From contig DASXSU010000031.1 in the NCBI GenBank assembly GCA_036505795.1, positions 72,471 to 136,470 on the forward strand: 64,000 nt of DNA. Reading direction: 5' to 3'. This DNA is from Nitrospirales bacterium. GTDB lineage: Bacteria; Nitrospirota; Nitrospiria; Nitrospirales; NS-4. This document shows, piece after piece, positions 8,527-49,731 of this stretch. Numbering within the stretch: the first letter of the stretch is position 1; each line of letters begins with the position of its first letter. Below the pieces are notes generated by a model. It was not told the DNA's origin and did no database searches. It was given only the letters and a program-made list of their open reading frames with translations. The position numbers and the translations under genes are program-made.

Positions 8527-11125
8527 TCTAAGCCCGCTCATGCGGCAGTATCGAGAATTGAAACAACGTTATCCGCAGTCGCTGCTGTTCTTTCGCGTCG
8601 GCGATTTCTACGAGATGTTCTATGAGGACGCTGTCGAAGGCGCCCGGCTCTTAAACATTGCGCTGACATCACGCGATAAGAACAAAACGGAACAGGTGCC
8701 TCTCTGCGGCGTACCGTACCATGCGGCCTCCGGATATCTGGACAAGCTGCTCAAGGCCGGACGTTCTGTGGCGTTGTGCGAACAGGTGGAGGATCCACGC
8801 CAGGCGAAAGGCCTGGTCCGGCGCGAAGTGGTCCGGGTCTACACACCCGGCACCCTGATTGAATCCAACTTGCTGACGGCGGGGCAGCCGAACTTCCTTG
8901 CGGCCTTGTATTTGACTCCCGGCGGAGCCGGACTCGCTTGGCTGGATCTCTCCACCGGCGAATTTCGGGCCTTGGAACTGTCTGAGGCATGGGAAGGCCG
9001 TCTTGCTGACGAACTTCTCCGGATCGAACCTCGGGAACTCCTGGCACCGGATGATCAGTTGGAACGGGTCCGGCGGCTCTTCGGGGCGGTTGTCCCTGCC
9101 GTGACTTCCGTCGAGGCTGCGGCATTTGAAGGGGCCGTCTCGAGGGCTCTGCTGTTGGAACATTTTCAGGTGGCCTCGCTGGTCGGATTCGGATGCGAGG
9201 AGAAGTCGCTTGCCGTAAGGACCGCAGGGGCGCTTCTCAGCTACGTCAAGCAGACGCAACCCGGGGTGCCTCTTTCGCACATCGTCAGACTCACCATGCA
9301 GGATGCCGGGCCCATTATGGCTCTTGATCGGGCCACTCAACGCAATCTCGAACTCGTCCGAAGGGCTTTTGATGGTCGTACAGAAGGCTCGCTGCTGAGT
9401 GCTCTGGACCGGACCATGACATCGATGGGAGCGCGCCTGCTGCGCGATTGGATCTTGCACCCGCTGACCGAGATTCCTCCGATCTTGGACCGCCAGAAAG
9501 CGGTCGCAGAATTGCATGCGGACTTTGAACGGCGTAGCCGGCTTCGGGCGGCAATGAAAAGTATCGCGGACATTGAGCGCCTGATGGCTCGGATCGTTCT
9601 AGGCGCCGCGAATGCGAGAGATCTGCTGGCGTTGAAAAAGTCTTTGAGCGCGCTGCCGCAAATCAACCAGCAACTTTCAGCTTGCACCGCGCCGTTTCTT
9701 CAAAGTCGCCATGAGCCGTGGGACGACCTTGCTGAGTTGGCGCTCACGATCGAGCGGGCCATCGAGCCGGAGGCTCCAATGGCGGTGAAAGAGGGGGGGC
9801 TCATTCGCGAGGGGTACCACGCTGCGCTCGATGAGCTGAAGGTCATCAGCCGGGAGGGAAAAGCGTGGATCGCCGGGATCGAGCGTCAGGAACGGGAGAA
9901 CACCGGCATCGCGTCGCTGAAAATCCGCTTCAATCAGGTCTTCGGCTATTACATCGAGATCACCAAAACCAACCTTGAGCGGGTTCCGGCTCACTACGCC
10001 CGCAAGCAAACCCTCGCGAATGCGGAGCGGTTCACCACCCCGGAGCTCAAAACCCTGGAAGATAAAGTGATGGGCGCCGAAGAGCGGATCCGGACTTTGG
10101 AGTTTGAGCTGTTCGATTCGCTGCGCCGAAACGTTGCCACGGCCGCACTCCGTGTACAAAAGCTCGCGCAGACGGTCGCCGCCATCGACGTCGTGACCGG
10201 ACTCTCGCTGGTGGCCTCAGAAAATTCCTATTGCCGTCCCGAACTGAGCTTGGATGATTGTCTCATCATCAAGGACGGGCGCCACCCGGTTCTCGAGCAG
10301 CAGCGCCTCGCGGGCGGCTTCATTCCGAATGACGTGCAACTCGGCGGTCCCACTCATCGTCTGCTTGTCATCACCGGACCCAATATGGCAGGAAAAAGCA
10401 CGTATCTGCGACAAACCGCGCTGATCGTGTTAATGGCCCAGATCGGCTCCTTCGTGCCGGCAAAGGTCGCCGCGATTGGGGCAGTGGACCGCATTTTTAC
10501 ACGGGTCGGCGCCTCCGACAATCTCTTAGAGGGCCAAAGCACGTTCATGGTGGAGATGACCGAAACAGCCAACATCCTTCATCATGCGACGGAGCGAAGC
10601 CTGATTATCCTGGATGAGATTGGGCGCGGCACCAGCACATTCGATGGGCTCAGCATTGCGTGGGCGGTCGCCGAGGCACTGGCGGATCCCTCCCGGATCG
10701 GGGCCCGGACCCTGTTTGCCACTCACTACCACGAACTCACCGAACTCGCGCATTCCCACTCCGGCGTCCGCAACTATAACGTCTTGGTCAGAGAGCGGGG
10801 AGATGAAATCCTATTCTTGCGAAAAATCGTTCCAGGCGGCAGCGACCGCAGTTACGGCATTCATGTGGCGCGCCTGGCGGGCCTTCCTCGTGATGTCATC
10901 GCGCGCGCCCAAAATGTGTTGGCGCGGCTGGAAACCGGCATGAGCCACGAGGACAGGAACCAGGAAGAAATGCATGGGGGTGAACCTGCCGTCGACCCCA
11001 CCCTGCCGGCAGCCCACCCGATGCTGGATGAAGTGCGGCAGATGGATCTCTTCAAGATGACCCCGCTGGACGCGCTGAACAAACTGTCCGAGATGAAGGA
11101 GCGCTTGGAGCAAGAACGCGGGTGA
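8510..11125 (+). CDS. mutS: DNA mismatch repair protein MutS
   Basis: 871 aa. The N-terminal mismatch-binding motif is FFRVGDFYEMF. The Walker A is GPNMAGKSTYLRQ, and STFMVEM and DEIGRGTS are present. Confidence 0.95.
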   Translation: MTMFSDLSPLMRQYRELKQRYPQSLLFFRVGDFYEMFYEDAVEGARLLNIALTSRDKNKTEQVPLCGVPYHAASGYLDKLLKAGRSVALCEQVEDPRQAKGLVRREVVRVYTPGTLIESNLLTAGQPNFLAALYLTPGGAGLAWLDLSTGEFRALELSEAWEGRLADELLRIEPRELLAPDDQLERVRRLFGAVVPAVTSVEAAAFEGAVSRALLLEHFQVASLVGFGCEEKSLAVRTAGALLSYVKQTQPGVPLSHIVRLTMQDAGPIMALDRATQRNLELVRRAFDGRTEGSLLSALDRTMTSMGARLLRDWILHPLTEIPPILDRQKAVAELHADFERRSRLRAAMKSIADIERLMARIVLGAANARDLLALKKSLSALPQINQQLSACTAPFLQSRHEPWDDLAELALTIERAIEPEAPMAVKEGGLIREGYHAALDELKVISREGKAWIAGIERQERENTGIASLKIRFNQVFGYYIEITKTNLERVPAHYARKQTLANAERFTTPELKTLEDKVMGAEERIRTLEFELFDSLRRNVATAALRVQKLAQTVAAIDVVTGLSLVASENSYCRPELSLDDCLIIKDGRHPVLEQQRLAGGFIPNDVQLGGPTHRLLVITGPNMAGKSTYLRQTALIVLMAQIGSFVPAKVAAIGAVDRIFTRVGASDNLLEGQSTFMVEMTETANILHHATERSLIILDEIGRGTSTFDGLSIAWAVAEALADPSRIGARTLFATHYHELTELAHSHSGVRNYNVLVRERGDEILFLRKIVPGGSDRSYGIHVARLAGLPRDVIARAQNVLARLETGMSHEDRNQEEMHGGEPAVDPTLPAAHPMLDEVRQMDLFKMTPLDALNKLSEMKERLEQERG

Positions 11126-11128
11126 TAT

Positions 11129-11166
11129 TAAAAAAAAGGCGGCGGACGTTTGCCACGCCCGCCGCC
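11129..11166 (-). terminator. Rho-independent terminator, possibly bidirectional, between the convergent mutS and 11193 genes
   Basis: GGCGGCGG (11138-11145) pairs perfectly with CCGCCGCC (11159-11166) around a 13-nt loop. The A8 run at 11130-11137 becomes a U-tract on the minus strand. On the plus strand the tail is TCGAGTCTTTCG, which is weaker. Confidence 0.65.
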
Positions 11167-11192
11167 TCGAGTCTTTCGTTGAGAAACTTGCT

Positions 11193-11837
11193 TTAGCAGC
11201 CCTTGAAGTCCTTGAAGCGCACGTGCTTACCGATCTTCGTGCTGCCGCCGGGCATATCCGCACCTAGCACATCAGCCGGCACCGGCGTTCCCATCTTCCC
11301 GCACTCAGCCTTCATCTCCGGGAATCCAGGCTGGCCTTTCATGGCGACCGGAGAAAGGCCGGGTGAAGAGCCTGCCGCTACGGGCATCATTCCCGCCCAG
11401 AGCTTGTCGTCCACATCTTTCACGGCCGTCGCAACGCGCTTGTTTTGCTCCACTTCCTGTACGACCATTTCGACCACGTCGGCGTTGGTGCCGGGCGCCA
11501 CTTTATCGGCAGCGGCCGGTCCGGGCGCCGGCCGGGCTTTGGATTTCAGGAGCTCGAGGTCTTTGCCGGAGGCGAAGACGCGCATGTTCTTGCCCGGAAG
11601 CATCTTGCCCCAAAACTGATCGATTTCACCGCTGTTCCGGACGCCCTTCCAGGTCCAGTTTACCCAGACGGCATCTTCGTACGGATCCACAATGATGATG
11701 CGCGCCAGGATCGTCTTGGGCGTGCTAAAGTCCTCCTCGAATCGCTCCGAGAAGGCTTCGATGGCCAGGGCGACACCGGCTGCACCCGTTATTAGGATTG
11801 CAGCGCTTACCGCCAGTAGTTTGGAATACGCCTTCAT
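11193..11837 (-). CDS. Hypothetical secreted protein
   Basis: The track ORF runs 11193-11930. An internal ATG at 11837 follows GGAGGGAG and yields the signal peptide MKAYSKLLAVSAAILITGAAGVALA. I recognise no family. A Pro/Ala-rich linker lies mid-protein, and the protein ends KDFKGC. Confidence 0.55.
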   Translation of the reverse strand: MKAYSKLLAVSAAILITGAAGVALAIEAFSERFEEDFSTPKTILARIIIVDPYEDAVWVNWTWKGVRNSGEIDQFWGKMLPGKNMRVFASGKDLELLKSKARPAPGPAAADKVAPGTNADVVEMVVQEVEQNKRVATAVKDVDDKLWAGMMPVAAGSSPGLSPVAMKGQPGFPEMKAECGKMGTPVPADVLGADMPGGSTKIGKHVRFKDFKGC

Positions 11838-11874
11838 GAGACTCCCTCCTTCGTAGTAAAAATTTGAGGATAAA

Positions 11875-12321
11875 TTATTTGAGTACCTTGAAGGCCGTAA
11901 TCGTGGGGCGGCCCCCGATATCTTCAACATTCACTTCCATGTTCACGAGTTCTTGGTTGGCCTTCATCATCTGGTCCATCAAGTTTTTATCTTTAACGGC
12001 CAGGCGCACGGTAGTCTGGGCATGGTACCAGCCGGCATAAGGCGCATTCTTCTCAGGCCCGCCTTGGAACCCCCACGCGCCCCCCGCCGCGTAGCCGTCC
12101 GGCGTTTCTGTGGTGGTAGAAGACGTCCGCCCGCCTGGGGTTCCGGAACCGGGCGACCCGGTATTCCAGTATTGGATCCCGAAAAGGACTTCATTATCCG
12201 GATTTTCGGCCCAAGCCGACCAGATCCGACCCTTTAAGGCTTCAGCTGATGCCTGATCCACGGGCCAGGCGCTGATTATAAACAGGGCAAAGACTGCAGC
12301 AAAGATAACTGCTCGTTTCAT
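11875..12321 (-). CDS. Hypothetical secreted protein
   Basis: 148 aa with the signal peptide MKRAVIFAAVFALFIISAWPVDQASA. The central segment is Gly/Ser/Thr/Pro-rich. I recognise no family. GGAGGGAG lies upstream of the ATG. Confidence 0.55.
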   Translation of the reverse strand: MKRAVIFAAVFALFIISAWPVDQASAEALKGRIWSAWAENPDNEVLFGIQYWNTGSPGSGTPGGRTSSTTTETPDGYAAGGAWGFQGGPEKNAPYAGWYHAQTTVRLAVKDKNLMDQMMKANQELVNMEVNVEDIGGRPTITAFKVLK

Positions 12322-12388
12322 GCCGGCTCCCTCCTTGAATTAAGCTTTATCATCGGATGACATACGCGTAAGACCTTCAAGGGGACCG

Positions 12389-12417
12389 ATGCTACTAGAG
12401 GCCTTTTTTTTTGTCAA
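12389..12417 (-). promoter_or_regulatory. Candidate sigma-70 promoter: TTGACA-N17-TAGCAT (minus strand)
   Basis: The complement of 12412-12417 is TTGACA and the complement of 12389-12394 is TAGCAT, with exactly 17 nt between them. It sits in an AT-rich gap about 65 nt upstream of the 12321 start. Confidence 0.4.
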
Positions 12418-12463
12418 GAAAATTTTGGATAAGGCTGTGAGGCATGTAACGTACTGATAGTAT

Positions 12464-13174
12464 TTATGTTTTTGTATCTACATGATCCATCAAAATGTTC
12501 GCAATTCCGGCCGTTAGACGGACGTCTTTTTGATCTAGCCCGGGTACAAAAAGATACGTACCTATCTTCCATGTCAACAGCGAGAAGAGCGGTTCTTGTC
12601 CTTCCTCTGTGCCGAGTTCGGCTCCCACGATGCGCCCGTCTTTCAAATACAACACCCCTGACTCGCTGTGATGCTTAAGTAGTAACGCCCCAGTTTGCTG
12701 GTACATCTCGACCGCCTGGATCAGATCCATCAGCTCTGTGTCGGCAAGCTTTCCGGTCATGCGGATACCGTCTAATGGAAGGCGACGTGCAGCCTCTACC
12801 CGAGCCAGTAGAGCTCGGATCCGGACATTGATTTCCTCCAGATCACACGGCTTAGCCAGATAATCGTCCGCCCCGATTTTTAAGCCGTGGATGCGGTCAA
12901 TATCCTCATCTTTAGCGGTGAGAAACAAAAACGGAATCGTGCAGGAACGGGGATCGGATCGGAGGCGTCGGCACAAGGTGTAGCCGTCCATGACAGGCAT
13001 CATAATGTCCGCGACAATGACATCGGGGCGGGCCGCACTGACGCACTCGAGTGCTTCCGCACCATGCGCAGCCGTCCGTGTCTCATAGCCTCGAGGGCTT
13101 AAATACAGGGCGATCGCCCGTGCCAGTTTGGGTTCGTCCTCGACGATCAATACACTTACGCGGCTAGAAGTCAC
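12464..13174 (-). CDS. Response regulator: receiver domain fused to a DUF4388-like (PATAN-associated) C-terminal domain
   Basis: 236 aa. The REC motifs are [21 protein letters not shown] and [24 protein letters not shown]. The C-terminal half, [44 protein letters not shown], resembles DUF4388. The GTG start overlaps the clpX TGA stop (GTGA). Confidence 0.75.
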
Positions 13175-19648: not shown

Positions 19649-21352
19649 GTGAGCATGTCGCTTGGGATGCTGGTGCCGCTGCTGCCCCTTCTGGCAGTGA
19701 TTATTGTCCTCGTGGGGGAACCCGAGACGCAGTACGTACGGTCGAAGGTAGGCGTTCTGCCTCTGGCCGCGTCGTTCGGTGGTTCCCTCATCACGTTAGT
19801 GCTGGTCGCGTCGGATGGAGCTATTACCATCCGGTTCTATGATCCATCGTTCATCGCCAATGTTGCCCTTCCTTTAGGCTTCCACATCGATCGACTCAGC
19901 GCAGTCATGCTGGTCCTTATCTCGGGCGTTGGGACCATTGTCTACGGCTATTCAGTCAATTACATGTTCCAGGACCGTGGCTATCGCCGTTTCCTCGCCC
20001 TCATCGGGGTCACCACCTTTGTCCTCCTTTGCATGGTATCGAGCATCAACTTGGTGATGCTGTTTGTGTTCTGGCAACTCCTGAGTTACCTGCTCGCGTT
20101 GCTTGCTCACAATCTGTCGCATCCAGCCACGCTACAGGGAGCGTTCCGAACGTTTACGCTCCTACGAGTGGGCGACGTGGCATTTCTCGCGGGGATCATT
20201 CTCGCGTATGCCTTGTACGGAACAATCGAGTTTCAGGAGTTATTCAGCCGGGCCGCCGATACACCGATCACGCTCTCACTCTTTCCTGGAATCGAGATGA
20301 CGGGGAGCACAGCGGTGACGCTCCTTATTTTCATCGGGGCGATGAGCAAGTCGGCACAGTTTCCGCTCCACATTTGGCTTCCGAGTTCGCTCTATGCTCC
20401 GACGCCGGTCCATGCGCTGCTTCATGCCGGAATTATTAATGCCGGAGGATTCTTGATAAACCGACTCGCCCCTTTATACGGATTAAGCCCGCCAACCCTA
20501 CACGTTGCTTTTGTGATCGGCACGCTCACCGCTTTCCTGGGGGCCTCCATGATGCTGACACAAAATGACATCAAAAAAACGCTGGGTTTCTCCACGATCG
20601 GCCAAATGGGCTATATGATCATGGAATGCGGCTTAGGGGCATTCGCTTTAGCAATCTTTCATCTCATTGCGCACGGGCTTTTCAAAGCGACGGTGTTCCT
20701 GAATTGCGGCAATGTCATCCATAAAGCCCGGCAGGAGCCCTTGCTTCCGATGAGGCCGGCGGCCCAAGAGGCGGAGTTTTCAGGTCTCACCTGGACAACC
20801 GGGTTTTTCACAATACTCCTGATGCCACTCATAATTCTGCTCGCGGCCCATGGAGCGTTGCAGATCCCGATCCTCGATTCTCAGGGGTCGGTGATCTTCC
20901 TCTTCTTTATCTGGGTAACCTCTACCCAGGCGATTTTGACACTCACCCGCTTGCGTGGGGTCGCGTCGTGGAAAGTTTCGGGCGCCATGCTCCTCATTCT
21001 GCTTTTCGTGGTGTTCACCTATCTCTTCGCCGCCAAGCGCTTCACAACATTTCTCTACCCGGATCGAGAAGAGGTGGCTGCTTACTTCAGGGCTGCTGCG
21101 CTTCCCGGGCCGGTTTTTGATAGCCTCGTGGTGATCAGCACTGTGCTTATTGTCGCGGGCTGGTTTTACCTCTACTCACGGACGCGTGGCGAGCGGATAC
21201 CATTACCCTCGTGGGTGGAAACAGTCCGCGCTAGCCTGTACCTGTTATTCATGAATCGCCTCTATCTCGATGTGGCGTATTCTAAACTTGGAGCCGCTGT
21301 GATGCGCCTGGCTTACCGCTTAGACCGGAGCTGGCTCGGGAGGGTGCTCTGA
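19649..21352 (+). CDS. dabB: DabB-type NuoL/MrpA-like proton-conducting membrane subunit
   Basis: 567 aa and polytopic. The Proton_antipo_M signatures are SAQFPLHIWLPSSLYAPTPVHALLHAGIINAGG and NDIKKTLGFSTIGQMGYM. It is the first gene of an operon that contains a DUF2309 gene. The start is GTG at 19649 or ATG at 19655. Confidence 0.75.
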   Translation: MSMSLGMLVPLLPLLAVIIVLVGEPETQYVRSKVGVLPLAASFGGSLITLVLVASDGAITIRFYDPSFIANVALPLGFHIDRLSAVMLVLISGVGTIVYGYSVNYMFQDRGYRRFLALIGVTTFVLLCMVSSINLVMLFVFWQLLSYLLALLAHNLSHPATLQGAFRTFTLLRVGDVAFLAGIILAYALYGTIEFQELFSRAADTPITLSLFPGIEMTGSTAVTLLIFIGAMSKSAQFPLHIWLPSSLYAPTPVHALLHAGIINAGGFLINRLAPLYGLSPPTLHVAFVIGTLTAFLGASMMLTQNDIKKTLGFSTIGQMGYMIMECGLGAFALAIFHLIAHGLFKATVFLNCGNVIHKARQEPLLPMRPAAQEAEFSGLTWTTGFFTILLMPLIILLAAHGALQIPILDSQGSVIFLFFIWVTSTQAILTLTRLRGVASWKVSGAMLLILLFVVFTYLFAAKRFTTFLYPDREEVAAYFRAAALPGPVFDSLVVISTVLIVAGWFYLYSRTRGERIPLPSWVETVRASLYLLFMNRLYLDVAYSKLGAAVMRLAYRLDRSWLGRVL

Positions 21353-21357
21353 CGGCA

Positions 21358-22656
21358 ATGATGACTGCATGTGTTGTGCTCGTCGCGACTCCAGTCGCGG
21401 GCGCGATGCTGGGCCTGCTCCTGTGGAGCAACGCTCAGGCGCTAAAGGTATGTCTTCTCCTCACCACAGTGGTGAGTCTCGTCACTATCGGATGGACTGC
21501 AGGAACCTTGCCAGGAGACATTGGTGGATTTCCCTTACTCACGCTCCTTCCGCTCATAGCGTTTATAACCTTGTTGGGACAGCCCGTACACCATAGCCTC
21601 CGTGCGACCTGGTTGGTAACGCTACTTTTTCTTGGATTGGGACTGGGCGCCTTGGTTTGCGAGCCACCAGTATCACAAATCTTCTTTCTTGTTCTCCTAG
21701 CCCTCGTCGGTTTGACGCTCTATCAATATCGGCACCAAGCAGTATTTGATGCTTGGTTGGGGATAGGGACGGTGGGTCTCGGAATGCTCTGTCTCATAGT
21801 CGCCATGATCCTAGCCCCTCCAGTTTCATTCATTATGTTCGCCGTCGCATGTGGCATCGCGCTACCGCTGGTGCCGTTTCACAAAAGTTATGTTGCGGCA
21901 CTGACAGGGTTGCCGGGCAACCTGCCGTCCTTTCTTGCAGTCTTGCTGCCCGTCGTTGGATTCCAGGGGCTACTGACCCTGTACCCTCAACTTCCTGACG
22001 TCCTGATTGAGGGAGCCTCCATACTTGCACTGGTGGGAATGGTCTACGGTTCCTTGAAAGCATTGACTCAATCCCGCGCGGCATCGGTCGTGACCTACGG
22101 CAGTCTGGCCTTCTTCTCTATTCTTTGGTGGAATCTCGCCACAACGAGGACTGCAGCACCACCGACTGTCGTATATCTCAGTGCGGTTGGTCTCGCCACG
22201 AGTGGGCTGCTCATTGCCAGGTATGCGCTGCGGGCTCGTTACGGTGAGATTGATCTGCGTGCGTTGACCGGGCTGGCCGAGCGCATGCCTCGATTCGCCC
22301 TCGCCCTGTCACTATTGACCGTCGCAGCCTTGGGTCTCCCGCCGTTTGGAGTGTTTTCCGGTTTTATCGGGATGCTGCTCGCTCCGTCGTTGACGTTGTC
22401 CGGGGGCTTGGCCGTTATTCTTATGGTCTGGCTGTGCGCCTCCTGGTATTTTTTTGATCTCGCGCACGGACTGTTGTTCGGTCGCCAACGACATGAGCGG
22501 CAGCATGAGGATCTGCGCCCTTCTGAACTGGCTTCTTTGGCCATCGTGCTGGCGCTCTTAATCGCCTTGGGTGTTGCGCCCGCTCACCTTTTTGACCCTG
22601 GACCGGCAACCCTCCAGCCGACCGTCGCGATGGAGCCCCCTGCATGGACCAAATAA
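21358..22656 (+). CDS. Second, degenerate NuoM/NuoN/MrpD-like membrane subunit
   Basis: 432 aa and polytopic. It has recognisable but substituted family motifs: LPLVPFHKSYVAALTGLPG, LKALTQSRAASVVTYGSLAFFS and AALGLPPFGVFSGF. A 5-nt gap separates it from dabB, and it overlaps dabA by 13 nt. Confidence 0.6.
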   Translation: MMTACVVLVATPVAGAMLGLLLWSNAQALKVCLLLTTVVSLVTIGWTAGTLPGDIGGFPLLTLLPLIAFITLLGQPVHHSLRATWLVTLLFLGLGLGALVCEPPVSQIFFLVLLALVGLTLYQYRHQAVFDAWLGIGTVGLGMLCLIVAMILAPPVSFIMFAVACGIALPLVPFHKSYVAALTGLPGNLPSFLAVLLPVVGFQGLLTLYPQLPDVLIEGASILALVGMVYGSLKALTQSRAASVVTYGSLAFFSILWWNLATTRTAAPPTVVYLSAVGLATSGLLIARYALRARYGEIDLRALTGLAERMPRFALALSLLTVAALGLPPFGVFSGFIGMLLAPSLTLSGGLAVILMVWLCASWYFFDLAHGLLFGRQRHERQHEDLRPSELASLAIVLALLIALGVAPAHLFDPGPATLQPTVAMEPPAWTK

Positions 22657-25600
22657 AACGCACCGGAGACCCCGACACCCGACGCATGGAGCTTCGCGGC
22701 GTTGTTCGCGTCGCCGGCGAAGTGATTGCGCAGTACTGGCCGATGCGTACCTTCATACATCACAATCCGCTTCATAGCTTGGAGTATCTTCCTTTTGAGA
22801 CAACAGTCCGGCGTGGCCAGAAGTTCTTGGGAGGCTACGGTTACGTCTCCGGAAGGAACTTTCGAGGCTACCTTCGCTCCGGCAGAATCCTGTTCCGTCA
22901 TCTTGACGAGGCCATACAACGGCTGGCACATAATCAGTCCGTCACCGTTGGTCCCTGCCGAATCGCACACCAAGATGTTCTGCGAGCCTGCATGACTCAT
23001 GGACTCTGCGCGACGACTCCGGAACCGCTGGACGTCTTGCTGAATCCAGGATCGAACGAAGAGCTGGTGTTCGCACTGGCCGATCACCTGACAGCAGCTT
23101 TGACCGCCCCAACGATCGAGGATCGGATTGCAACCGATGTCCGCGAAGACCTGGCTGAGTTGGGGAGCTATGTCCCTCTCTCTAACTGGTGCGACCGTAC
23201 CCTCGGCACGGAGATCGTCAGCCTCGTGAACACCGAACTGATCAAGTGGTGTGAGGCATTCCTGGACGAGGGGGATGCCACCTGGTCGATGCCGGGACGA
23301 GACCAGGGGCTTTATAATGCCTGGAAGGCGCTTGCCGCCCAGGAGTGGTCGCCCTGCAGCATTAAGGACAGTCGCCGAAAGATAGGCGATCTTCCGGAGC
23401 ACCCGGAAGATGCGGTAATCGAGAGCCTTGAGATCCTTGGAATTCCCGACGAGCACCGACAGGACTATCTCTCGCTCCAGCTTACGGCTCTTCCCGGTTG
23501 GGCGGGCTACATCAAATGGCGCGCGGAACAGCAGAACTACAGCTGGCAACAGGTTTATCCAGCCAATCTCGTACAGTTCCTCGCAGTCCGTCTGTGGTAT
23601 GTGCGCGAGCTGGTCCAAAAAGCCTGCCATGAAGCGCTGGATATTCAGGGAAACTTCCGCGCAATCTCGGGCTACATGCAGAACCATCCGCACGCGTATT
23701 TCTTGCGGAAGGAACAGGTTGCCGGACGGTTGCCTGCCGCCTATTCGGAGCAGGTACAACGGCTATCGAGGAGCAACAGCAACGAATGGAAGGAGTTATC
23801 CGAGCGTTTGGAAATCGACACCCGGCCGCAACGGGACCTGTCGCTGCGCCTTGTTGCAGCCCGCCGGCTTCTTAACCTGGGGCAGGCCTTGGAAATCGTG
23901 CCAACCGCGTTGATCGGCGCCAATCCAAAGGATCTTGCCAAGCTCGTCAGCTGGATGGATGCATTTCCCGAACCCGAGCACGGACCGGTTTGGCTCAAAG
24001 CGTTTGAAGCAAGATACCAGGAACAATTATTCCGAATGCTGATGCGGACGGCGGGAAGTCACGGAAGTTCCGCACCCGTACGACCTCAGTCACAAGCAGT
24101 CTTTTGTATCGATGTGCGCTCTGAGCCCTTTCGACGTCACCTGGAATCGACGGGAGCGAATGAGACTTACGGATTCGCCGGCTTTTTTGCCGTCTTTATT
24201 CGTCATCGCGCGTGGGGAAAGGAACATTACACAGAGCAGTTCCCGGCGATCATGCGGGCTCGAAATGAAGTGCGGGAGCTACCCCGCAGTTATCTCGAAC
24301 ACATGGTGCCCAAGCATACGTCGAGAACTAAATTGGTTCATGCAGGCCACACACTCTTGCACGATTTGAAAGAGAACGTGGTCACGGCCTATGTCATGGT
24401 GGAATCTCTGGGATGGTTCTATGGCATTCCAATCGTCGGCAAAACTGTAACGCCTGCCCTGTACAAGCGTCTGGCATCGTGGGTACAACGCCGATTGGTG
24501 CCTTCGATCGCCACCATTCTCACCGTGGATAAATTATCACCCGCAGACATCGAGGAGATGTTGGTGGCGGAACAGCGTTCCACCATCTGGAAAGCCTTAC
24601 GCGACCGGGTCGGGGTCCGCGCCTCCCGGATTTCTGCGGAATTCGTGGAAGCGCTGCGCCTCCAGGCCTTGAACGGAGAAAAAGGTGCGGAGCCGTCGTT
24701 GATCGGGGCCGGCCGGGAACTCGCGCTCTCGAAAGATGATCTCGTAGCGTTTGTTGAGACGCTGCGGCGACAGTACCGGATCACTCAACGATCAGCCTCG
24801 TGGCAAAAGGAACGGATCACGCGCACCGGGTTCACGCTCGACGAGCAGGTACTCACGGTGGAAACGGCCCTCCGCATGATGGGGCTTATCCGTAACTTCG
24901 CCCGGGTCGTGCTGTTTTGCGCCCACGCCAGCACCTCCGAGAATAATCCGTATGAATCTGCTTTGGATTGCGGAGCCTGCGGGGGCAATGAGGGAAAACC
25001 TAACGCGCGCGTGCTCGCCATGATGGCGAACAATCCCAAGGTGAGGGAACGGTTGACGAAGAATGGCATCGACATTCCTTCGGACACGCATTTTCTCGCC
25101 GGCCAAGTCGACACGACTACCGACGAGGTGCAACTCTTCGACCTTGAAGATGTGCTGCCCAGCCATCGGAAGGACGTGGCTCGGCTGCTGGACGATCTTC
25201 ACGAGGCCGCACAGCTTACGAGCCAGGAGCGCTGTGCCCGGTTCCCGGAGGCTAAAGAAGCGTTACCCCCGGCGCAGGCCTGGACGTACGCACGCGAGCG
25301 CAGTGTAGACTGGAGTCAGGTGCGTCCTGAGTGGGGCTTATCCGGCAATACCTCATTCATCATCGGCCGGCGTGACCTCACGAAGGGCCTGAATCTAGGC
25401 GGGCGCGTCTTCCTGCATTCCTATGATTACCGAGAAGACCCGACCAATAGGTTGTTGGAGGTAATCATGACGGGGCCGCAAGTCGTCGCCCAATGGATCA
25501 ACATGGAGCATTACTTCTCTACCGTCGATAATGAGGTGTACGGCAGCGGAAGCAAAATTTATCATAACGTCGTCGGGAGACTCGGGATCATGTCGGGGCC

Positions 25601-25895
25601 TTGGAGCGATCTACGACTCGGCTTGGCCTGGCAGACGGTGATGAACGGAGAGGCGCCCTATCACGAGCCCATGCGACTGTTGACCATTATTGAAGCCCGA
25701 TGTTCGGACATCGAGAAACTAATCAGGCGGCACGAGGTGTTGCAGCATTTCTATCACAACGAGTGGGTGCACCTCGTCGCGCTCGACCCAGAGGACGGAA
25801 CCTTGTATCGGTACAGATCAACGGGGGGGTGGAGCAATGTCGCCGTTGGACCGACACGCATAAATGGAACGAAGGGAAAGGAGTCGGTTGAATGA
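22644..25895 (+). CDS. dabA: DabA (DUF2309) inorganic-carbon pump subunit, long form
   Basis: 1083 aa. The DUF2309-type N-terminus is YWPMRTFIHHNPLHSLEYLPFE. Putative Zn ligands are FCIDVRSE (Cys at 24105, Asp at 24111) and CAHAS...LDCGACGG (His at 24924, Cys at 24969). It is adjacent to a NuoL-like gene. Confidence 0.85.
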   Translation: MDQIKRTGDPDTRRMELRGVVRVAGEVIAQYWPMRTFIHHNPLHSLEYLPFETTVRRGQKFLGGYGYVSGRNFRGYLRSGRILFRHLDEAIQRLAHNQSVTVGPCRIAHQDVLRACMTHGLCATTPEPLDVLLNPGSNEELVFALADHLTAALTAPTIEDRIATDVREDLAELGSYVPLSNWCDRTLGTEIVSLVNTELIKWCEAFLDEGDATWSMPGRDQGLYNAWKALAAQEWSPCSIKDSRRKIGDLPEHPEDAVIESLEILGIPDEHRQDYLSLQLTALPGWAGYIKWRAEQQNYSWQQVYPANLVQFLAVRLWYVRELVQKACHEALDIQGNFRAISGYMQNHPHAYFLRKEQVAGRLPAAYSEQVQRLSRSNSNEWKELSERLEIDTRPQRDLSLRLVAARRLLNLGQALEIVPTALIGANPKDLAKLVSWMDAFPEPEHGPVWLKAFEARYQEQLFRMLMRTAGSHGSSAPVRPQSQAVFCIDVRSEPFRRHLESTGANETYGFAGFFAVFIRHRAWGKEHYTEQFPAIMRARNEVRELPRSYLEHMVPKHTSRTKLVHAGHTLLHDLKENVVTAYVMVESLGWFYGIPIVGKTVTPALYKRLASWVQRRLVPSIATILTVDKLSPADIEEMLVAEQRSTIWKALRDRVGVRASRISAEFVEALRLQALNGEKGAEPSLIGAGRELALSKDDLVAFVETLRRQYRITQRSASWQKERITRTGFTLDEQVLTVETALRMMGLIRNFARVVLFCAHASTSENNPYESALDCGACGGNEGKPNARVLAMMANNPKVRERLTKNGIDIPSDTHFLAGQVDTTTDEVQLFDLEDVLPSHRKDVARLLDDLHEAAQLTSQERCARFPEAKEALPPAQAWTYARERSVDWSQVRPEWGLSGNTSFIIGRRDLTKGLNLGGRVFLHSYDYREDPTNRLLEVIMTGPQVVAQWINMEHYFSTVDNEVYGSGSKIYHNVVGRLGIMSGPWSDLRLGLAWQTVMNGEAPYHEPMRLLTIIEARCSDIEKLIRRHEVLQHFYHNEWVHLVALDPEDGTLYRYRSTGGWSNVAVGPTRINGTKGKESVE

Positions 25896-26230
25896 GTGAG
25901 CTGACGTTGCACCCGATGAAGGAAATCCGTGTGATTGTCGCAGGTGAACACAAGGCTTTTGTGACCGAGTTGCTGGAGGCTCAAGCGACCGGCTACACGG
26001 TTATCGGCAATGTCTCCGGGAAAGGCCATCACGGCGTTCGTGAAGCTCACTTTATGTTCAGTGAGCAGGAGAGCCTCGTGATGATTATGACGGTCGTGCC
26101 CGAAGAGAAGGTCGAACCGATCTTGGCCGGATTGCGGCCGCTGTTCGCCCGTCACTCCGGCGTGATGTTCGTGGCTGATGTGGCGGTCAGCCGACGGGAG
26201 TACTTCGGGAAAAGCTTGACCGGTTCCTGA
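25892..26230 (+). CDS. PII-like signal transduction protein
   Basis: 112 aa. The sequence MKEIRVIVAGEHKAFVTELLEAQATGYTVIGNVSGKGHHG... has the beta-alpha-beta layout and G-x-G loop region of the P-II family. Its ATG overlaps the dabA TGA stop (ATGA). Confidence 0.65.
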   Translation: MSELTLHPMKEIRVIVAGEHKAFVTELLEAQATGYTVIGNVSGKGHHGVREAHFMFSEQESLVMIMTVVPEEKVEPILAGLRPLFARHSGVMFVADVAVSRREYFGKSLTGS

Positions 26231-26250: not shown

Positions 26251-27633
26251 TCAGACGGATTGTTCCGGCACCCTGAGATGATATTTCCCCATGCGATAGC
26301 GAAGGGTGTTACGGGTGACTTTGAGAAGCCGCGCGGCCTCGGACACGTTCCCTTTGGACCGGCCCAACGCCTCTTGCAGCATGATCTTTTCCACTTCCTC
26401 AACGGAAAGACCGAAGGAAAGCAACGAGGGAAGCGGTGTTTCGGCAGACGTCTCCCTGCTGGCCCTTAGATACGCCGGAAGATTATCAACGTCGACTCGC
26501 GTGCCTTTACACGTGATTGTCACCCATTCCACCATATTTTGAAATTCGCGTATGTTGCCCGGCCAGGAATAGCTCTCGACGAGCCGGAGCGCCTCCGGCG
26601 TGAAGCCCGAGATCCTCAGGCCTCGTTCCCGGTTGTACCGCGCCAGTAAGTGATCCAGCAGCACCTGAATGTCACCTCTGCGTTCCCTCAACGGCGGTAG
26701 ATGGAGGGGGCAGACGCTGATACGGTAGAAAAGATCTTCTCGAAACTTGCCCTTCTGCACCGAATCCCTTAGATCGCGGTTGGTCGCCACGACGAGCCGC
26801 AGATCCACCTTGATTCCTTTGAGTCCCCCTAGCGGCTCCACCATGCGATCCTCGATCACCCGCAGCAACTTCGCCTGCGTCGGCGCGCTCATCTCACCGA
26901 TTTCGTCGAGAAACAGCGTCCCCCTGTGGGCCAGAAGAAATCGGCCCGGTTTGGCCTTTTTCGCATCGGTAAACGCGCCCTTCTCATAGCCGAACAACTC
27001 GGATTCGAGCAGGGGTTCCGGGATCGCCGCGCAGTTGATTGCAACCATCGGTCCTCCCCTCCTCGGACTGGCATAGTGAATCGCTCTCGCCAGCAATTCC
27101 TTGCCGGTGCCGCTCTCGCCGCTGATCAGCACCGTCGAATCGGTGACTGCGATATCGCACGCCAGGGCTTTGATCTTTTGGAGTTCCGGAGACTGCCCCA
27201 CGATATTCTCAAAGCCGAACTGCCCGCGCAGTTCCTGGCTCAGCCCTCGATTTTCCTGTTTCAGGCGTCGCATGTCGAGCGCCCGCTTCACGACGATTTT
27301 CAACTCTTCGTTGTCTACCGGTTTGCTAATGAAGTCGAAGGCCCCCTTCTTGATGGCTTCAACGGCCGACTTGACCGTGCCGAAACCGGTAATGATGATG
27401 ACCGGAATTTCAGACCCTTCCTTGACCACATGGTCCAGGACATCAAAACCCCCGGCTCTGCCCATCTGGAGATCCGTGAGCACGAGATCGATCCCGCCTT
27501 CATCCACCAGTTTGATTCCTGCTTCTCCTGAATCGGCCAACACCAAGCGATAGCCTTCACCCCTCAGGACGAGATCCAAGATCCGACGCATCCGCTCCTC
27601 GTCCTCTATGATCAGGATCGTTGATTCAGGCAT
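26251..27633 (-). CDS. Sigma-54-dependent response regulator (NtrC family)
   Basis: 460 aa. It has a REC domain (ILIIEDE, DLVLTDLQM), an AAA+ domain with GESGTGKE and the sigma-54 contact loop GAFTDA, and a C-terminal Fis-type HTH (NVSEAARLLKVTRNTLRYRM). Confidence 0.9.
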   Translation of the reverse strand: MPESTILIIEDEERMRRILDLVLRGEGYRLVLADSGEAGIKLVDEGGIDLVLTDLQMGRAGGFDVLDHVVKEGSEIPVIIITGFGTVKSAVEAIKKGAFDFISKPVDNEELKIVVKRALDMRRLKQENRGLSQELRGQFGFENIVGQSPELQKIKALACDIAVTDSTVLISGESGTGKELLARAIHYASPRRGGPMVAINCAAIPEPLLESELFGYEKGAFTDAKKAKPGRFLLAHRGTLFLDEIGEMSAPTQAKLLRVIEDRMVEPLGGLKGIKVDLRLVVATNRDLRDSVQKGKFREDLFYRISVCPLHLPPLRERRGDIQVLLDHLLARYNRERGLRISGFTPEALRLVESYSWPGNIREFQNMVEWVTITCKGTRVDVDNLPAYLRASRETSAETPLPSLLSFGLSVEEVEKIMLQEALGRSKGNVSEAARLLKVTRNTLRYRMGKYHLRVPEQSV

Positions 27634-29636
27634 GCCTCCTCCTTCTGCGCACCGGCCCGAACCACCGTGGGAAATTTGAGGACGACTTCCGTCCCTTGGC
27701 CTTCGGTACTGTGAATCACCATCTGTCCTCCGTTGTTCTCAACCAACCGCTTGGCGTTCGTCAAGCCCAGCCCCGTCCCATATTCCTTGGTCGTAAAGAA
27801 CGGGTCGTAGATATGCCGGAGGTGCTCTGTGCTGATGCCCATGCCGGTGTCCGCCACCAATAACTCGATCATGGCGGGTGCGCCGATAGTCTGGGCCAGC
27901 TGCGCCGAGAGCCGTAGGGTGCCTCCGGCCGGCATTGCTTCCCGCGCGTTGACGAGCAGGTTGACCAGGGCTTCTTTCACCTGATCAGGATCGACTAAGA
28001 GCTCCGGCAGATCGCGGCCGACTTCGGTCAGCACGTGAATTTTTTCGCCCTTTCCCAGCGCTCGCCATTCTTGTACGGACGCGTCGAGCAAAACCTTCGC
28101 CAAAACCGGCCGGAGTTCAGGAGGCATCTGTCGCGCAAATCGCAAGAAATGATTGATACGATTGGTGAGCCGGTCCACCTCGTCGATCACATACTGCGCC
28201 ACCTCGCGCTTGACCGACTCAGGCTGGTGCTCATCCATCACGAGTTGCGCCGAGCTTCGAACCACGCCGAGCGGGTTCTTGATGTCATGAGCGAGCGCCG
28301 CCAGCAACTGGCCGACGGAGGCAAGCTTTTCCTTCCGCAATAATTCTCCCTCCTGGTCATGTATCTTCTTGAAGCTCTCCTCCAAGGTCTCCGCCATTTG
28401 ATTAAAGGCCAATGCCAGTGACTCCAGCTCATCCCCTGTACGAACCGCTACGCGACGATTCGTGGTTTCGCGCAAGCCGCGATCAAATCGACCTGCGGCA
28501 GCCAAATCGCTGACGTCCCGGCGGATCGCGTCAGCCTGCTCGTGCAACAGGACGATAGGTTTTACAATCTTTTGTCCAATATAGAACCCCAGAGACGCGA
28601 GAACCGTCACCATTCCGAATCCAATGATCCCGACCACCCGCAAGAGCGTGTAGACCGGAGCGTAGGTCTCTGCCGGGTCCTGCCGGACAAAGGCGTACCA
28701 TTCTGTCCCCCCCAGACTGGATTTGGACAGCTGGTGCGAAAAACGGATCGGCGCATACCCGACGATTGAGTTGTGACCCCCGTGGGCATCGTCCTCGGCC
28801 ACGACCCATCCCGGGGTCGGTCGCATCAACTGCTGCATCAGCGCATCGTTGATCAGATGGGCCTTGGGCGGCAGAACCGGACAGATCAGCGGGGTGCCTT
28901 CGGTGTTCAGCAACATCCCATGGCCCCGCTCTCCAACATGAATCTCCATGATGGCCTTCGTCAGGTTGTCCCGGCGTAGAATCAGCTTCACGACGCCAAC
29001 CGCTCGGGTTCCCTCGTCATTGAGCACCGGCACCGCGATGTCCAATAAAAAGAGACCGGGTGCCTGCTCATATAGATCGCTCACGTAGGTATTCCCCGCT
29101 CCTTGGTTGAATGCCTCGTTCCACCAGAGCTTGTCGTGGTGAAGAAATTCGACATCGGGCTGCATGCTGGCCACAAGCGCTCCATTTTGGTCCGTCACTA
29201 AAATGTTCTGGTAGGTCTCGCTGCGAATGTTGGACCAGGATCGAATATAGAGCATCGTCTGCTGACTGATGAACTCTGGAAACGCGTGGGTTTGTCCCTT
29301 GCGGAACGCGTCCCAGCGCTGGCTTCGCTCCTGGAGCAGCCCCGCCAATCTCTTGCCTCGATATGAGGCGTTGACAGCCTCCACTGACGCGCGTACCGCC
29401 TGCGGAGCCGCCCCCAGGTGCCGTGCAGCATCCACTTCGTCATCCAACATGACCTCGATTCGGCGCGCGGTGGCCGACGCGATCTGTTGGAAGCTATCGC
29501 CGATCGTGTTCTTGAGGGTATGGGTGCTGTAAAGGTAGGTTGCAAACAATGCCACGATGCCGGGAGCAAATCCGACAATCAGCAGAGAGGCGACGAATTT
29601 TTTCTGAAGGCCGCGTCGAGCCCGACCGATTTCCAT
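27612..29636 (-). CDS. Sensor histidine kinase (Cache-like periplasmic domain, HAMP, HisKA, HATPase)
   Basis: The track ORF extends to 29699. The ATG at 29636 (MEIGRARRGLQKKF) precedes TM1. The H-box is LAALAHDIKNPL, the N box is NLLVNAREAM, and the G boxes are DTGMGI and GTGLGL. It overlaps the regulator start by 22 nt. Confidence 0.85.
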   Translation of the reverse strand: MEIGRARRGLQKKFVASLLIVGFAPGIVALFATYLYSTHTLKNTIGDSFQQIASATARRIEVMLDDEVDAARHLGAAPQAVRASVEAVNASYRGKRLAGLLQERSQRWDAFRKGQTHAFPEFISQQTMLYIRSWSNIRSETYQNILVTDQNGALVASMQPDVEFLHHDKLWWNEAFNQGAGNTYVSDLYEQAPGLFLLDIAVPVLNDEGTRAVGVVKLILRRDNLTKAIMEIHVGERGHGMLLNTEGTPLICPVLPPKAHLINDALMQQLMRPTPGWVVAEDDAHGGHNSIVGYAPIRFSHQLSKSSLGGTEWYAFVRQDPAETYAPVYTLLRVVGIIGFGMVTVLASLGFYIGQKIVKPIVLLHEQADAIRRDVSDLAAAGRFDRGLRETTNRRVAVRTGDELESLALAFNQMAETLEESFKKIHDQEGELLRKEKLASVGQLLAALAHDIKNPLGVVRSSAQLVMDEHQPESVKREVAQYVIDEVDRLTNRINHFLRFARQMPPELRPVLAKVLLDASVQEWRALGKGEKIHVLTEVGRDLPELLVDPDQVKEALVNLLVNAREAMPAGGTLRLSAQLAQTIGAPAMIELLVADTGMGISTEHLRHIYDPFFTTKEYGTGLGLTNAKRLVENNGGQMVIHSTEGQGTEVVLKFPTVVRAGAQKEEACLNQRS

Positions 29637-29785
29637 CGACGACCCTACCTCAATGCCATGGCGGCGGTCCGAGGAGACATGACGGGAAAGCCATGTCACT
29701 ATAGAGCACGCCCCAAAGGCGTGGCAAGGGAGGCGGAGGATAAACAGCCCTGTCGGGTCGCTCGTTCAGAGCAGGCCCATTGGCG

Positions 29786-44518: not shown

Positions 44519-45235
44519 CTATAGTACCTCGGTTTTCGGCTTGGGTTTGTAGCCCATGCGGTCCAGGAGCTTGCGGATTTTCGCCTGGAGAGTGTCGTCG
44601 GCGCCCACCATCACATCAGTCAACGGCTCCACGGCCGGCTTGCCGATTTTCCGGATGATTTCGCCCGCGGACTGGCGAAGGTCGTCATCCTCGTGCGTCA
44701 GTAAGCTCGCGACGGCGGTCACACTGGGGGCGCCGATTTTGATGAGCGCATCATAGGCCCGCTGACGGATGTCGTTGACCTCGTCAGTCAGCGCGTCAAT
44801 GAGCGGTCCCACAGCCCGCGCGTCACCCAACGCTCCGAGCACTTCCACTGCGTATTTGCGGGTGAGCCAATGCGGCTCTTTTAGGGCCGAGAGCATTTCA
44901 TCGGCCCGGCTTTTATTGGCGTCCCGCGACCGAATCGTAAAGCCCTTAACGATCCGCCGCTTCGTCGGCGCGCCATGCAGCGTCCCTCCGGGTTCCTCCT
45001 CAACCACGCGCACCGTGACGCCGTCCCCGATCTTCAGCGTCTTCAGCTCTTCGAGCAGCTCTTCTCCCACCTCCAAGACCACCGTCTTACCTTCGTACGC
45101 CAGCAGCTCAATCTCCATGGTCCGGTGTTCGATATCAACTTTCACCACGTTTTCCGAAATGAGATTAAAGCCGTCTTTCTTAATTCCGGGGCCGCCCTTG
45201 CTGATCTGAATCAATTTCGGCGATTCTTCTGCCAT
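44519..45235 (-). CDS. HEAT-repeat protein 5 of 5: non-HEAT N-terminal domain of about 105 aa plus about four PBS-lyase-type HEAT repeats
   Basis: The ATG at 45235 follows AGGAG. The longer track ORF, extending to 45430, overlaps the preceding gene. The C-terminal half has the repeats VLGALGDARAVGPLIDAL and LIKIGAPSVTAV. Confidence 0.7.
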   Translation of the reverse strand: MAEESPKLIQISKGGPGIKKDGFNLISENVVKVDIEHRTMEIELLAYEGKTVVLEVGEELLEELKTLKIGDGVTVRVVEEEPGGTLHGAPTKRRIVKGFTIRSRDANKSRADEMLSALKEPHWLTRKYAVEVLGALGDARAVGPLIDALTDEVNDIRQRAYDALIKIGAPSVTAVASLLTHEDDDLRQSAGEIIRKIGKPAVEPLTDVMVGADDTLQAKIRKLLDRMGYKPKPKTEVL

Positions 45236-45263
45236 CGTCTCTCCTTTACGCGCTACGAGCTGC

Positions 45264-46025
45264 CTACTCGCTGGGCGGAACCCATCCGAGGCTGGCCAGC
45301 GTCCCCTCGACGGTTTCTCGCACCATCTCGTTCTCGTCTTCCAACAGAGGCACCAGCGCCTCCACCACCTGCCGGTCTCCCAGTCTCGCCAAAGACTCGG
45401 CCGCATTGCGGCGCACAAGCCAATCCTCATCTTGAAGCGCCTGCGCGAGCCCTTGCAACGCGCGTCGGTCTCCGATAAGGCCCAAGGCCTCAGCCGCGTG
45501 CCGCTTGACGATCCAGTTCTCTCCCGCCAATCCGTTCAACAGCCCATCCACCGCGCGCGGGTCCGGAATCTTTTTGAGCGCTCGAGCGGCCTCCTCACGG
45601 ACGGTCTGGTCCATCAAGGCTTCCATCAGGCCTTCCACAGCCCGCGGATCGCCGATCTTCTCGAGGGCTTCCACTGCCGCCAGACGTACCGCCCCGTCCC
45701 GATCTTTGAGCGCCCGGATCAAGAGGGGAAGCGCCCGTACGTCTTTGAGGTGCCCAAGCGCAATCGCCGCCTGTTCGCGGACCGCCCATTCATCATCGTG
45801 CAAGGCCTCCAAGAGCGGCTCCACGGCAGCAGGCCCGACTTGCACGAGAGCCTGGCGGGCTGCCTCGCGGATTACCCGATCATCATCGGTAAAGAGCCCG
45901 ATCAGCTGCCCGATTACAGAGGAACCGATCTGGCCCAGACTAGCCACGGCGTGGTCGCGCAGTGCCTCGTTTTCGTCGCGCAAGGCTGCCAGGAGTTGCT
46001 CGATCCGACGATCGCTCTCACTCAT
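45264..46025 (-). CDS. HEAT-repeat protein 4 of 5 (about eight PBS-lyase-type repeats)
   Basis: 253 aa built from units of about 31 aa, for example HDDEWAVREQAAIALGHLKDVRALPLLIRAL. Confidence 0.8.
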   Translation of the reverse strand: MSESDRRIEQLLAALRDENEALRDHAVASLGQIGSSVIGQLIGLFTDDDRVIREAARQALVQVGPAAVEPLLEALHDDEWAVREQAAIALGHLKDVRALPLLIRALKDRDGAVRLAAVEALEKIGDPRAVEGLMEALMDQTVREEAARALKKIPDPRAVDGLLNGLAGENWIVKRHAAEALGLIGDRRALQGLAQALQDEDWLVRRNAAESLARLGDRQVVEALVPLLEDENEMVRETVEGTLASLGWVPPSE

Positions 46026-47154: not shown

Positions 47155-47159
47155 GACCC

Positions 47160-49586: not shown

Positions 49587-49731
49587 GTGAGGCACCTCAA
49601 GAACGCAAAGGGGTGGCAAGCGGAGAATATGACCGCTCAGGTTAGCACACCGTTTTGCGCATGGTCAACGGGACTACAAAGCAGTGTTGTACAGCATCCG
49701 AAGCGGGGAATCCTGAGAAGAAGTCTGAGCT

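Follow-up and report, generated by a model that had tools for sequence, protein, structure and literature searches.

Results

The operon and its second gene

The DNA analysed here, called the window throughout, is a stretch of 64,000 nucleotides (nt) from contig DASXSU010000031.1 of a Nitrospirales bacterium, and its open reading frames (ORFs), read together with their Pfam matches, include a compact four-gene operon on the forward strand in the order dabB, long-form dabC, dabA and a P-II family gene. The subject of this report is the second of these genes, the ORF at 21358-22656 (+), which begins with the ATG at 21358, ends with the stop codon at 22654-22656 and encodes a degenerate NuoM-like protein of 432 amino acids (aa) with 14 predicted transmembrane (TM) helices. 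A first-pass annotation had placed an antiporter-like protein of this length at this position, and both length and coordinates are confirmed. We argue below that the 432-aa protein probably represents DabC in a long form, DabC being the membrane-embedded third subunit of complexes of the DAB1 type.

The preceding gene, dabB (19649..21352, +), encodes a putative NuoL-like proton-conducting subunit of 567 aa (PF00361, 161.9 bits; PF00662, 51.4 bits), which in the PDB matched DabB2 (9rd0_B, E 1e-36) and NuoL/ND5 chains. The ATG of long-form dabC lies 5 nt past the dabB stop, and a Shine-Dalgarno-like GGGAGGG, read from the sequence at 21339..21345 (+), stands 13 nt before this ATG, within the end of dabB. 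At the other end, the stop of long-form dabC overlaps the start of dabA by 13 nt, with GGAG 8 nt before the dabA ATG, an arrangement that fits translational coupling of the two genes. The dabA gene (22644..25895, +) encodes a beta-carbonic-anhydrase-like cytoplasmic subunit of DabA1-type length (1083 aa; PF10070, 878.7 bits) that aligns to DabA2 (9rd0_A, E 3e-104) in three stretches and to the DabA1 of Nitrobacter hamburgensis in one piece, over 97% of its length. Relative to the 747-position Pfam model this DabA has about 270 extra residues, and one-piece alignment was obtained only with DabA1-type proteins. The last gene of the operon, at 25892..26230 (+), encodes a P-II family protein of 112 aa (PF00543, 76.4 bits).

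In DAB1 operons a third gene lies between dabB and dabA (Desmarais et al. 2018/2019), and in a cryo-electron microscopy preprint on the DAB1 of Thermocrinis albus, DabC is the third subunit of the complex (bioRxiv 10.64898/2026.05.01.722082). According to the same preprint, the helices of DabC align with the NuoM helices beside NuoL, the conserved hydrophilic residues have turned hydrophobic, and deletion of dabC abolishes function in two species (the T. albus and H. neapolitanus work). The published DabC is small, "half of NuoM", and has no Pfam domain (bioRxiv 10.64898/2026.05.01.722082); examples are those of T. albus (fused to DabB), H. neapolitanus (Hneap_0908) and N. hamburgensis (WP_011504819). 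The list of DAB1 operons given there includes N. hamburgensis with DabC and "fused" entries from Aquificae, and does not list Nitrospira (bioRxiv 10.64898/2026.05.01.722082). Among PDB entries DAB2 is present (9rd0), and none was found for DAB1.

Fold and family membership

In its predicted structure the 432-aa protein has an antiporter-like fold over its full length, the sequence matches being confined largely to the C-terminal part. It passes the threshold of PF00361, the Proton_antipo_M family, weakly (42.1 bits against a cut-off of 21.5, E 8e-11), with residues 157-356 matching profile positions 84-285. Among solved structures, only E. coli NuoM was related to it by sequence (phmmer E 2e-10); a profile built from 30 relatives matched NuoM/ND4 chains with E 1e-19 over residues 161-420 only, and hhalign against a canonical NuoM profile gave a probability of 99.7% over TM7-14. 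All NuoM/NuoN equivalog scores were far under their cut-offs (for TIGR01972, 75.9 bits against 263.8). The N-terminal extension, residues 1-158 with predicted TM1-TM6 (21358..21831, +), is not in the published short DabC, and phmmer, hmmsearch and hhalign all failed to align it to NuoM. The AlphaFold2 model of the protein (predicted template modelling score, pTM, 0.74; predicted local distance difference test score, pLDDT, 68) has 14 helices, with TM7 broken at residues 169-174 and TM12 at 325-331. Residues 1-158 form TM1-6 in this model, mostly at pLDDT 75-93, and fall within the whole-length Foldseek superpositions, whose template modelling scores (TM-scores) were 0.70-0.80 to NuoM, ND4, NdhD, NuoN and MrpD over 445-499 aligned columns. 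The NuoM/NuoN/MrpD layout that the first-pass annotation had described is thus borne out by the 14-helix model, as is the family assignment by the PF00361 score. The most plausible origin of long-form DabC, in our judgement a likely one, is descent from an antiporter-like subunit of the NuoM/ND4/MrpD type. A recent duplication of dabB was also considered as its origin and was rejected, the BLASTP similarity to dabB not being significant.

Conservation, selection and the choice of start codon

A genome scan with one genome per species (alignment A3) found 231 relatives, and the best 80 of these, whose loci were retrieved, all belong to the Nitrospira lineage, with N. moscoviensis, Ca. N. defluvii and N. 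lenta among them. The order dabB, long-form dabC, dabA and P-II is the same in each of these 80 loci, as far as the contigs extend, and a P-II gene follows dabA in the operons of Nitrospira, Nitrospina and Nitrobacter. Identity to the relatives is 45-80% for long-form DabC, 63-85% for DabB, 57-87% for DabA and 73-96% for P-II. Over 14 independent pairs the ratio of nonsynonymous to synonymous substitution rates (dN/dS) is 0.13-0.37 for long-form dabC, 0.05-0.24 for dabB and 0.07-0.19 for dabA, and 0.14-0.54 for the N-terminal part of long-form dabC alone. The part of the gene upstream of residue 160 is open, with alignment beginning at residue 30 or earlier, in 78 of 82 sequences (81 fetched loci and the window), and 41 columns are invariant among 30 sequences, those in the N-terminal part including P65, L73 and Q75.

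These data bear on two other accounts of the gene. According to one, it would be a decaying, functionless relic of a duplicated antiporter gene, as might be suggested by its evolving faster than its neighbours and by the loss of all its catalytic residues. We find this hardly credible: the frame is intact in the same 78 of 82 sequences, dN/dS is well below 1 and thus indicates purifying selection on a gene that is not dead, the 41 columns mentioned are invariant, the end of the gene overlaps the start of dabA, and deletion of dabC abolishes function in two other species. According to the other, the real product would be a short DabC of 273 aa that starts at the internal Met160 (21835), leaving 477 nt upstream untranslated. 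The JGI call for an identical sequence is indeed 273 aa long (P0013, 100% identity over 63% of the query; also P0052), and a protein of this size would fit the 253-aa DabC of Nitrobacter, which aligns from residue 162. The upstream part, however, is open and aligned nearly throughout the family, has a dN/dS of its own in the range given above, contains invariant residues and models as six confident helices; moreover, GGGAGGG precedes the ATG at 21358, and no such motif precedes Met160. A start at Met160 is thus very unlikely, and, as judged from the sequences, both the public start and the label 'NADH-quinone oxidoreductase subunit M' carried by most of the relatives look wrong.

Loss of the proton-path residues

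The 432-aa protein has lost all of the canonical titratable residues of the proton path. In the phmmer alignment to NuoM, K234 corresponds to A168, D246 to A180, K265 to P198, D310 to R240, K312 to A242, H322 to F252, H348 to V277 and E407 to F336, so that the TM7 Lys, the TM8 Lys/His, the TM10/TM11 His residues and the TM12 Lys/Glu are all absent. The TM5 Glu is absent as well, since predicted TM5 (residues 103-123) holds Asp or Glu in 0 of 30 family members; sequence alignment fails in this part and the absence rests on the helix assigned as TM5 in the AlphaFold2 model. Other NuoM features are retained, namely H241 (as H175), Q308 (as Q238), Y317 and the P-x-x-P-x-H, GLP..G.F.G and D..E motifs. 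The TM7 break motif LPLVPFHKSYVAALTGLPG (residues 169-187; 21862..21918, +) aligns to NuoM 235-253, and within it P170, P173 and H175 are invariant, with Ala168 just before it in place of the TM7 Lys. The second segment, LKALTQSRAASVVTYGSLAFFS (residues 233-254; 22054..22119, +), lies at the site of the NuoM motif Q-x-D-x-K-R-x-x-A-Y-x-S-x-S-H. In the TM12 break motif AALGLPPFGVFSGF (residues 323-336; 22324..22365, +), placed by the alignment to NuoM, the GLP..G.F.G pattern is kept, and G326, P328, P329 and F330 are invariant in the family.

The same substitutions run through the family, for which an exhaustive profile search yielded 110 cluster representatives with E <1e-30. Lys occupies the TM7 position in 0 of 81 DabC-like representatives as against 8 of 8 canonical controls; Glu or Lys occupies the TM12 position in 0 of 112 (F in 62, L in 21, Y in 19); and the position of TM8 K265 is Pro in 75 of 84. 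In the nine canonical NuoM-like proteins that close the list of this search, K, H and H are present throughout, and the TM12 Glu in 4 of the 8 that cover it. The conserved charged residues, in 30 relatives, lie in loops and at helix ends, and acidic or basic residues are never more than a few residues deep in any predicted helix. The titratable exceptions in mid-membrane are H175 and position 203 in TM8, which is His in 26 of the 30 relatives and Gln in the 432-aa protein. The first-pass annotation had quoted these three peptides, read their charged positions as neutral and the GLPP motif as retained, and described the upstream DabB as canonical; each of these observations held. DabB keeps MSKSAQFPLHIWLP, LLHAG and QNDIKKTLGFST, with the TM7 Lys in MSKSAQ, and QNDIKK.

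One could nevertheless hypothesize that the protein still translocates ions through non-canonical residues, so that the complex would have two working channels, the candidates being H175, His/Gln203, Q238 and backbone-bound waters at the helix breaks. The strict conservation of broken TM7 and TM12 with their Pro/Gly motifs, the invariance of H175, the prevalence of His at position 203 and the purifying selection on the whole 14-helix fold would all suit such a channel. All five canonical Lys/His/Glu positions are, however, hydrophobic or Pro, with no reversions in 81-112 representatives; position 203 is Gln in the very protein studied here, and the residue equivalent to H175 is Ser in Nitrobacter DabC; no charge lies deep in any predicted helix; and the DabC of T. 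albus has no water chain (bioRxiv 10.64898/2026.05.01.722082). We therefore regard a second channel as quite unlikely, and a non-translocating subunit as the better description of the 432-aa protein.

Homology to the published DabC

The link to the published DabC was made through plasmid 1 of N. hamburgensis, which encodes dabB (565 aa), a hypothetical gene (253 aa), dabA (1037 aa) and P-II. The family profile (A2) matched this 253-aa DabC in hhalign with a probability of 97.2% (E 3e-11, 237 columns), residues 4-245 of the Nitrobacter protein corresponding to residues 162-407 of the 432-aa protein, that is, to TM7-TM14. The Nitrobacter DabC on its own has no Pfam match and no sequence match in the PDB, and reaches a probability of only 27% against the canonical NuoM profile. 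Since the long form matches that profile at 99.7%, it connects DabC to the antiporter family at the level of sequence. The two proteins are alike in lying between dabB and dabA with a P-II gene downstream and a long partner of the DabA1 type, in their NuoM-like helices with hydrophobic residues along the proton path, and in the profile homology over TM7-TM14. They are unlike in that the present protein has 432 aa, six more N-terminal helices, a passing PF00361 score and a match to NuoM by plain sequence search. Its size and Pfam match differ from the description of DabC, which makes it a long variant and an atypical member. On N. hamburgensis plasmid 1 the dabB-dabC-dabA cluster occurs twice in tandem (L082:2527-8413 and 9446-13039), and the same DabC accession is annotated in both copies.

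A series of lengths

The comparison of lengths drew on complete genes from long records and on apparent DabB-DabC fusion proteins, of which two were checked with Pfam. The Nitrospira form has 432 aa. That of Nitrospina watsonii, from an operon of the same kind, was called at 384 aa, and an in-frame start further upstream would probably bring it to about 412 aa; a 412-aa cluster is found in other Nitrospina. A 358-aa form from a complete genome (L084) clusters with Nitrospirales proteins and has the same operon arrangement; its profile match begins near position 60, from which we conclude that it lacks TM1-2. The 253-aa Nitrobacter form covers TM7-14. In putative natural DabB-DabC fusions (P0145, P0192 and others), which fit the "fused" Aquificae entries of the preprint, the DabC portion is about 290 or about 205 residues long. 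The label Melainabacteria is attached to a 459-aa form and to a fusion of 763-783 aa. Many short representatives were left uncounted as possible fragments: a search with one apparent short form (P0204) gave three matches, on contigs under 2 kb. A profile of the C-terminal half (A4) recovered 45 proteins, among them no proteobacterial DabC, in a search limited by its word filter. The 71-aa ORF before the 358-aa form was considered as a split-off TM1-2 and rejected, being basic and not hydrophobic. In Nitrospina watsonii a SulP/STAS transporter gene, whose family has bicarbonate transporters among its members, follows the operon at a distance of about 1 kb, past a small gene on the opposite strand (L083:12816-14471).

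The C-terminal half is common to all forms of DabC. As judged from these sequences, the forms of 358-459, about 250 and about 205 aa look like an N-terminal truncation series, and a full-length, Pfam-detectable DabC and such a series appear to be undescribed in the literature searched.

The N-terminal helices raise another reading, in which the protein would have acquired a new role, either because the hydrophobic remnant of its former proton channel offers CO2 a path from the membrane to DabA, or because its N-terminal half docks the long DabA1 or P-II. The six N-terminal helices are dispensable elsewhere, in the 253-aa and ~205-aa forms, and yet are conserved and under purifying selection here, and a hydrophobic CO2 channel through NdhF3 of cyanobacterial NDH-1/CupA has been proposed, as mentioned in the introduction of the DAB1 preprint (bioRxiv 10.64898/2026.05.01.722082). 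On the other hand, conservation of TM helices can be explained by packing alone, and in the published model of DAB1 the substrate and product channels lie in DabA (bioRxiv 10.64898/2026.05.01.722082). We consider a new role unlikely. If it were true, the complex of Nitrospira and Nitrospina would work unlike the solved DAB1 of T. albus, the short DabC would differ mechanistically, and in the truncation series, with its 14, ~12, 8 and 6 helices, one would see the new function being lost step by step.

Other observations on the locus and its relatives

In the DabB of the window, the TM5 motif FVFWQLLSYLL has Gln where NuoL has Glu144, and W-Q stands at the same position in 7 of 7 DabB-DabC fusion proteins read. 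In the DAB2 paper, DabB2 has Ile151 at this TM5 position, and restoring Glu halves the activity. With the TM5 coupling residue of DabB neutral, no charge relay would be expected between DabB and long-form DabC.

Upstream of dabB in N. moscoviensis there is a divergent gene for an MpsC domain (L001:5584-5955, -; PF10057, named for the DAB-like mpsABC operon of S. aureus); in the window, the 450 nt that precede dabB showed no counterpart among ORFs of at least 40 aa. An extra DabB-like match directly upstream of the operon is present in about a dozen Nitrospira genomes (loci L009, L010, L016, L022, L023, L028, L029, L037, L057, L064, L074 and L080). In L010 (2406-4094 and 4286-5986) the extra match is a second dabB; the pair is 81% identical, both members have PF00361 and PF00662, and a DDE transposase gene lies beside the second dabB. 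For two differing long DabC-like proteins, P0104 (436 aa) and P0140 (426 aa), the longest contig listed has the same length, 200,670 bp, so that two paralogous operons of the DAB1 type may be present in a single genome of the Nitrospira lineage.

Right after the P-II gene and convergent to the DAB operon, the window encodes a sigma-54-dependent response regulator (460 aa) and a dCache/HAMP histidine kinase (695 aa) at 26251-29699 (-). Further on, at 44519-49619 (-), four HEAT/PBS-lyase-like repeat protein genes follow one another (303, 378, 438 and 380 aa). The remaining genes of the window are ordinary chromosomal housekeeping genes, such as those for MutS, PNPase, IF-2, TruB and PdxJ.

Discussion

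Considering the findings together, we think it likely that the 432-aa protein is a long form of DabC, embedded in the membrane as the third subunit of a DAB1-type complex. The first-pass annotation had proposed a structural, probably non-translocating subunit of the DAB complex and had likened that complex to a miniature membrane arm of complex I or Mrp, and this proposal is supported by the predicted fold, the loss of charges, the fixed position between dabB and dabA and the purifying selection. The same role had already been published, on experimental grounds, for DabC, a name that the annotation did not give, and the aspect that it missed is that this DabC is unusually long.

By analogy with the solved complexes, the following arrangement can be envisioned. 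In the DAB1-type complex DabA would be a buried beta-carbonic anhydrase, DabB a NuoL-like proton channel and DabC the third subunit, and the complex would use the proton motive force for one-way hydration of CO2 to bicarbonate. The C-terminal half of DabC would, by its likeness to complex I, be the side facing the NuoL-like partner, with TM9-14 packing on DabB as NuoM packs on NuoL, and DabC may thereby lend mechanical or allosteric support to DabB and perhaps to those parts of DabA that lie close to the membrane. Long-form DabC itself would conduct no protons, which would pass only through DabB and the finger of DabA. The contact site, the lack of translocation and the requirement for function are what we infer from the T. 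albus and H. neapolitanus work.

Several observations weigh against this interpretation. H175 and His/Gln203 are still within the membrane. The identification with DabC is weaker by more restricted comparisons, a profile made from Nitrospira alone reaching only 79% against the Nitrobacter DabC (E 1.6e-5, 86 columns) and BLASTP only E 1e-3. In the model, pLDDT falls below 50 for residues 298-330 and 365-432, a region proposed to touch DabB. The contact surface itself, like the non-translocating role, is borrowed from preprint work on a DabC that is much shorter and belongs to another phylum. Finally, the six N-terminal helices are under purifying selection and have no known role, so that the label 'structural' may miss a function.

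Among known systems, NuoM/ND4/Nqo13 is the best relative of the 432-aa protein by both sequence and fold, sharing the 14 helices with broken TM7 and TM12. It differs in that the canonical K/H/E residues are replaced and the TM5 Glu is absent in the 432-aa protein, which is also about 70 residues shorter; moreover, no nuo genes adjoin long-form dabC, its neighbours being dabB, dabA and P-II. The Mrp antiporters are alike in placing a NuoL/MrpA-like subunit beside a NuoM/MrpD-like one, and 6z16_D and 9a6h_B were among the Foldseek matches, but MrpD is active and has all of its charges, and the window has no other mrp genes. A parallel may also be drawn with NdhD3/NdhF3-CupA of the cyanobacterial NDH-1MS (CO2 uptake), in which an antiporter-like pair likewise carries a vectorial carbonic-anhydrase-like protein, and of which 6tjv_D came second in the fold search; the cyanobacterial system, however, belongs to a complex that is driven by redox reactions, and its CupA protein is unrelated.

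DAB complexes, found widely as CO2 pumps in chemoautotrophs and in some pathogens, are candidates for the engineering of carbon fixation; to our knowledge, what DabC does in them and where it came from are understood least. With the long form, the link between DabC and the complex I / Mrp antiporter family extends from structure to sequence; the long form also suggests that DAB1 began as a module of two antiporters, the second of which lost its charges first and its N-terminal helices later. The natural forms with 14, ~12, 8 and 6 helices are suited to testing which part of DabC is needed. For long-form dabC genes, the common database label "NADH-quinone oxidoreductase subunit M" would be corrected. 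Nitrospira, a nitrite oxidiser of global importance whose carbon fixation runs through the reductive tricarboxylic acid cycle, would, as read from its genes, carry a three-subunit system of the DAB1 type.

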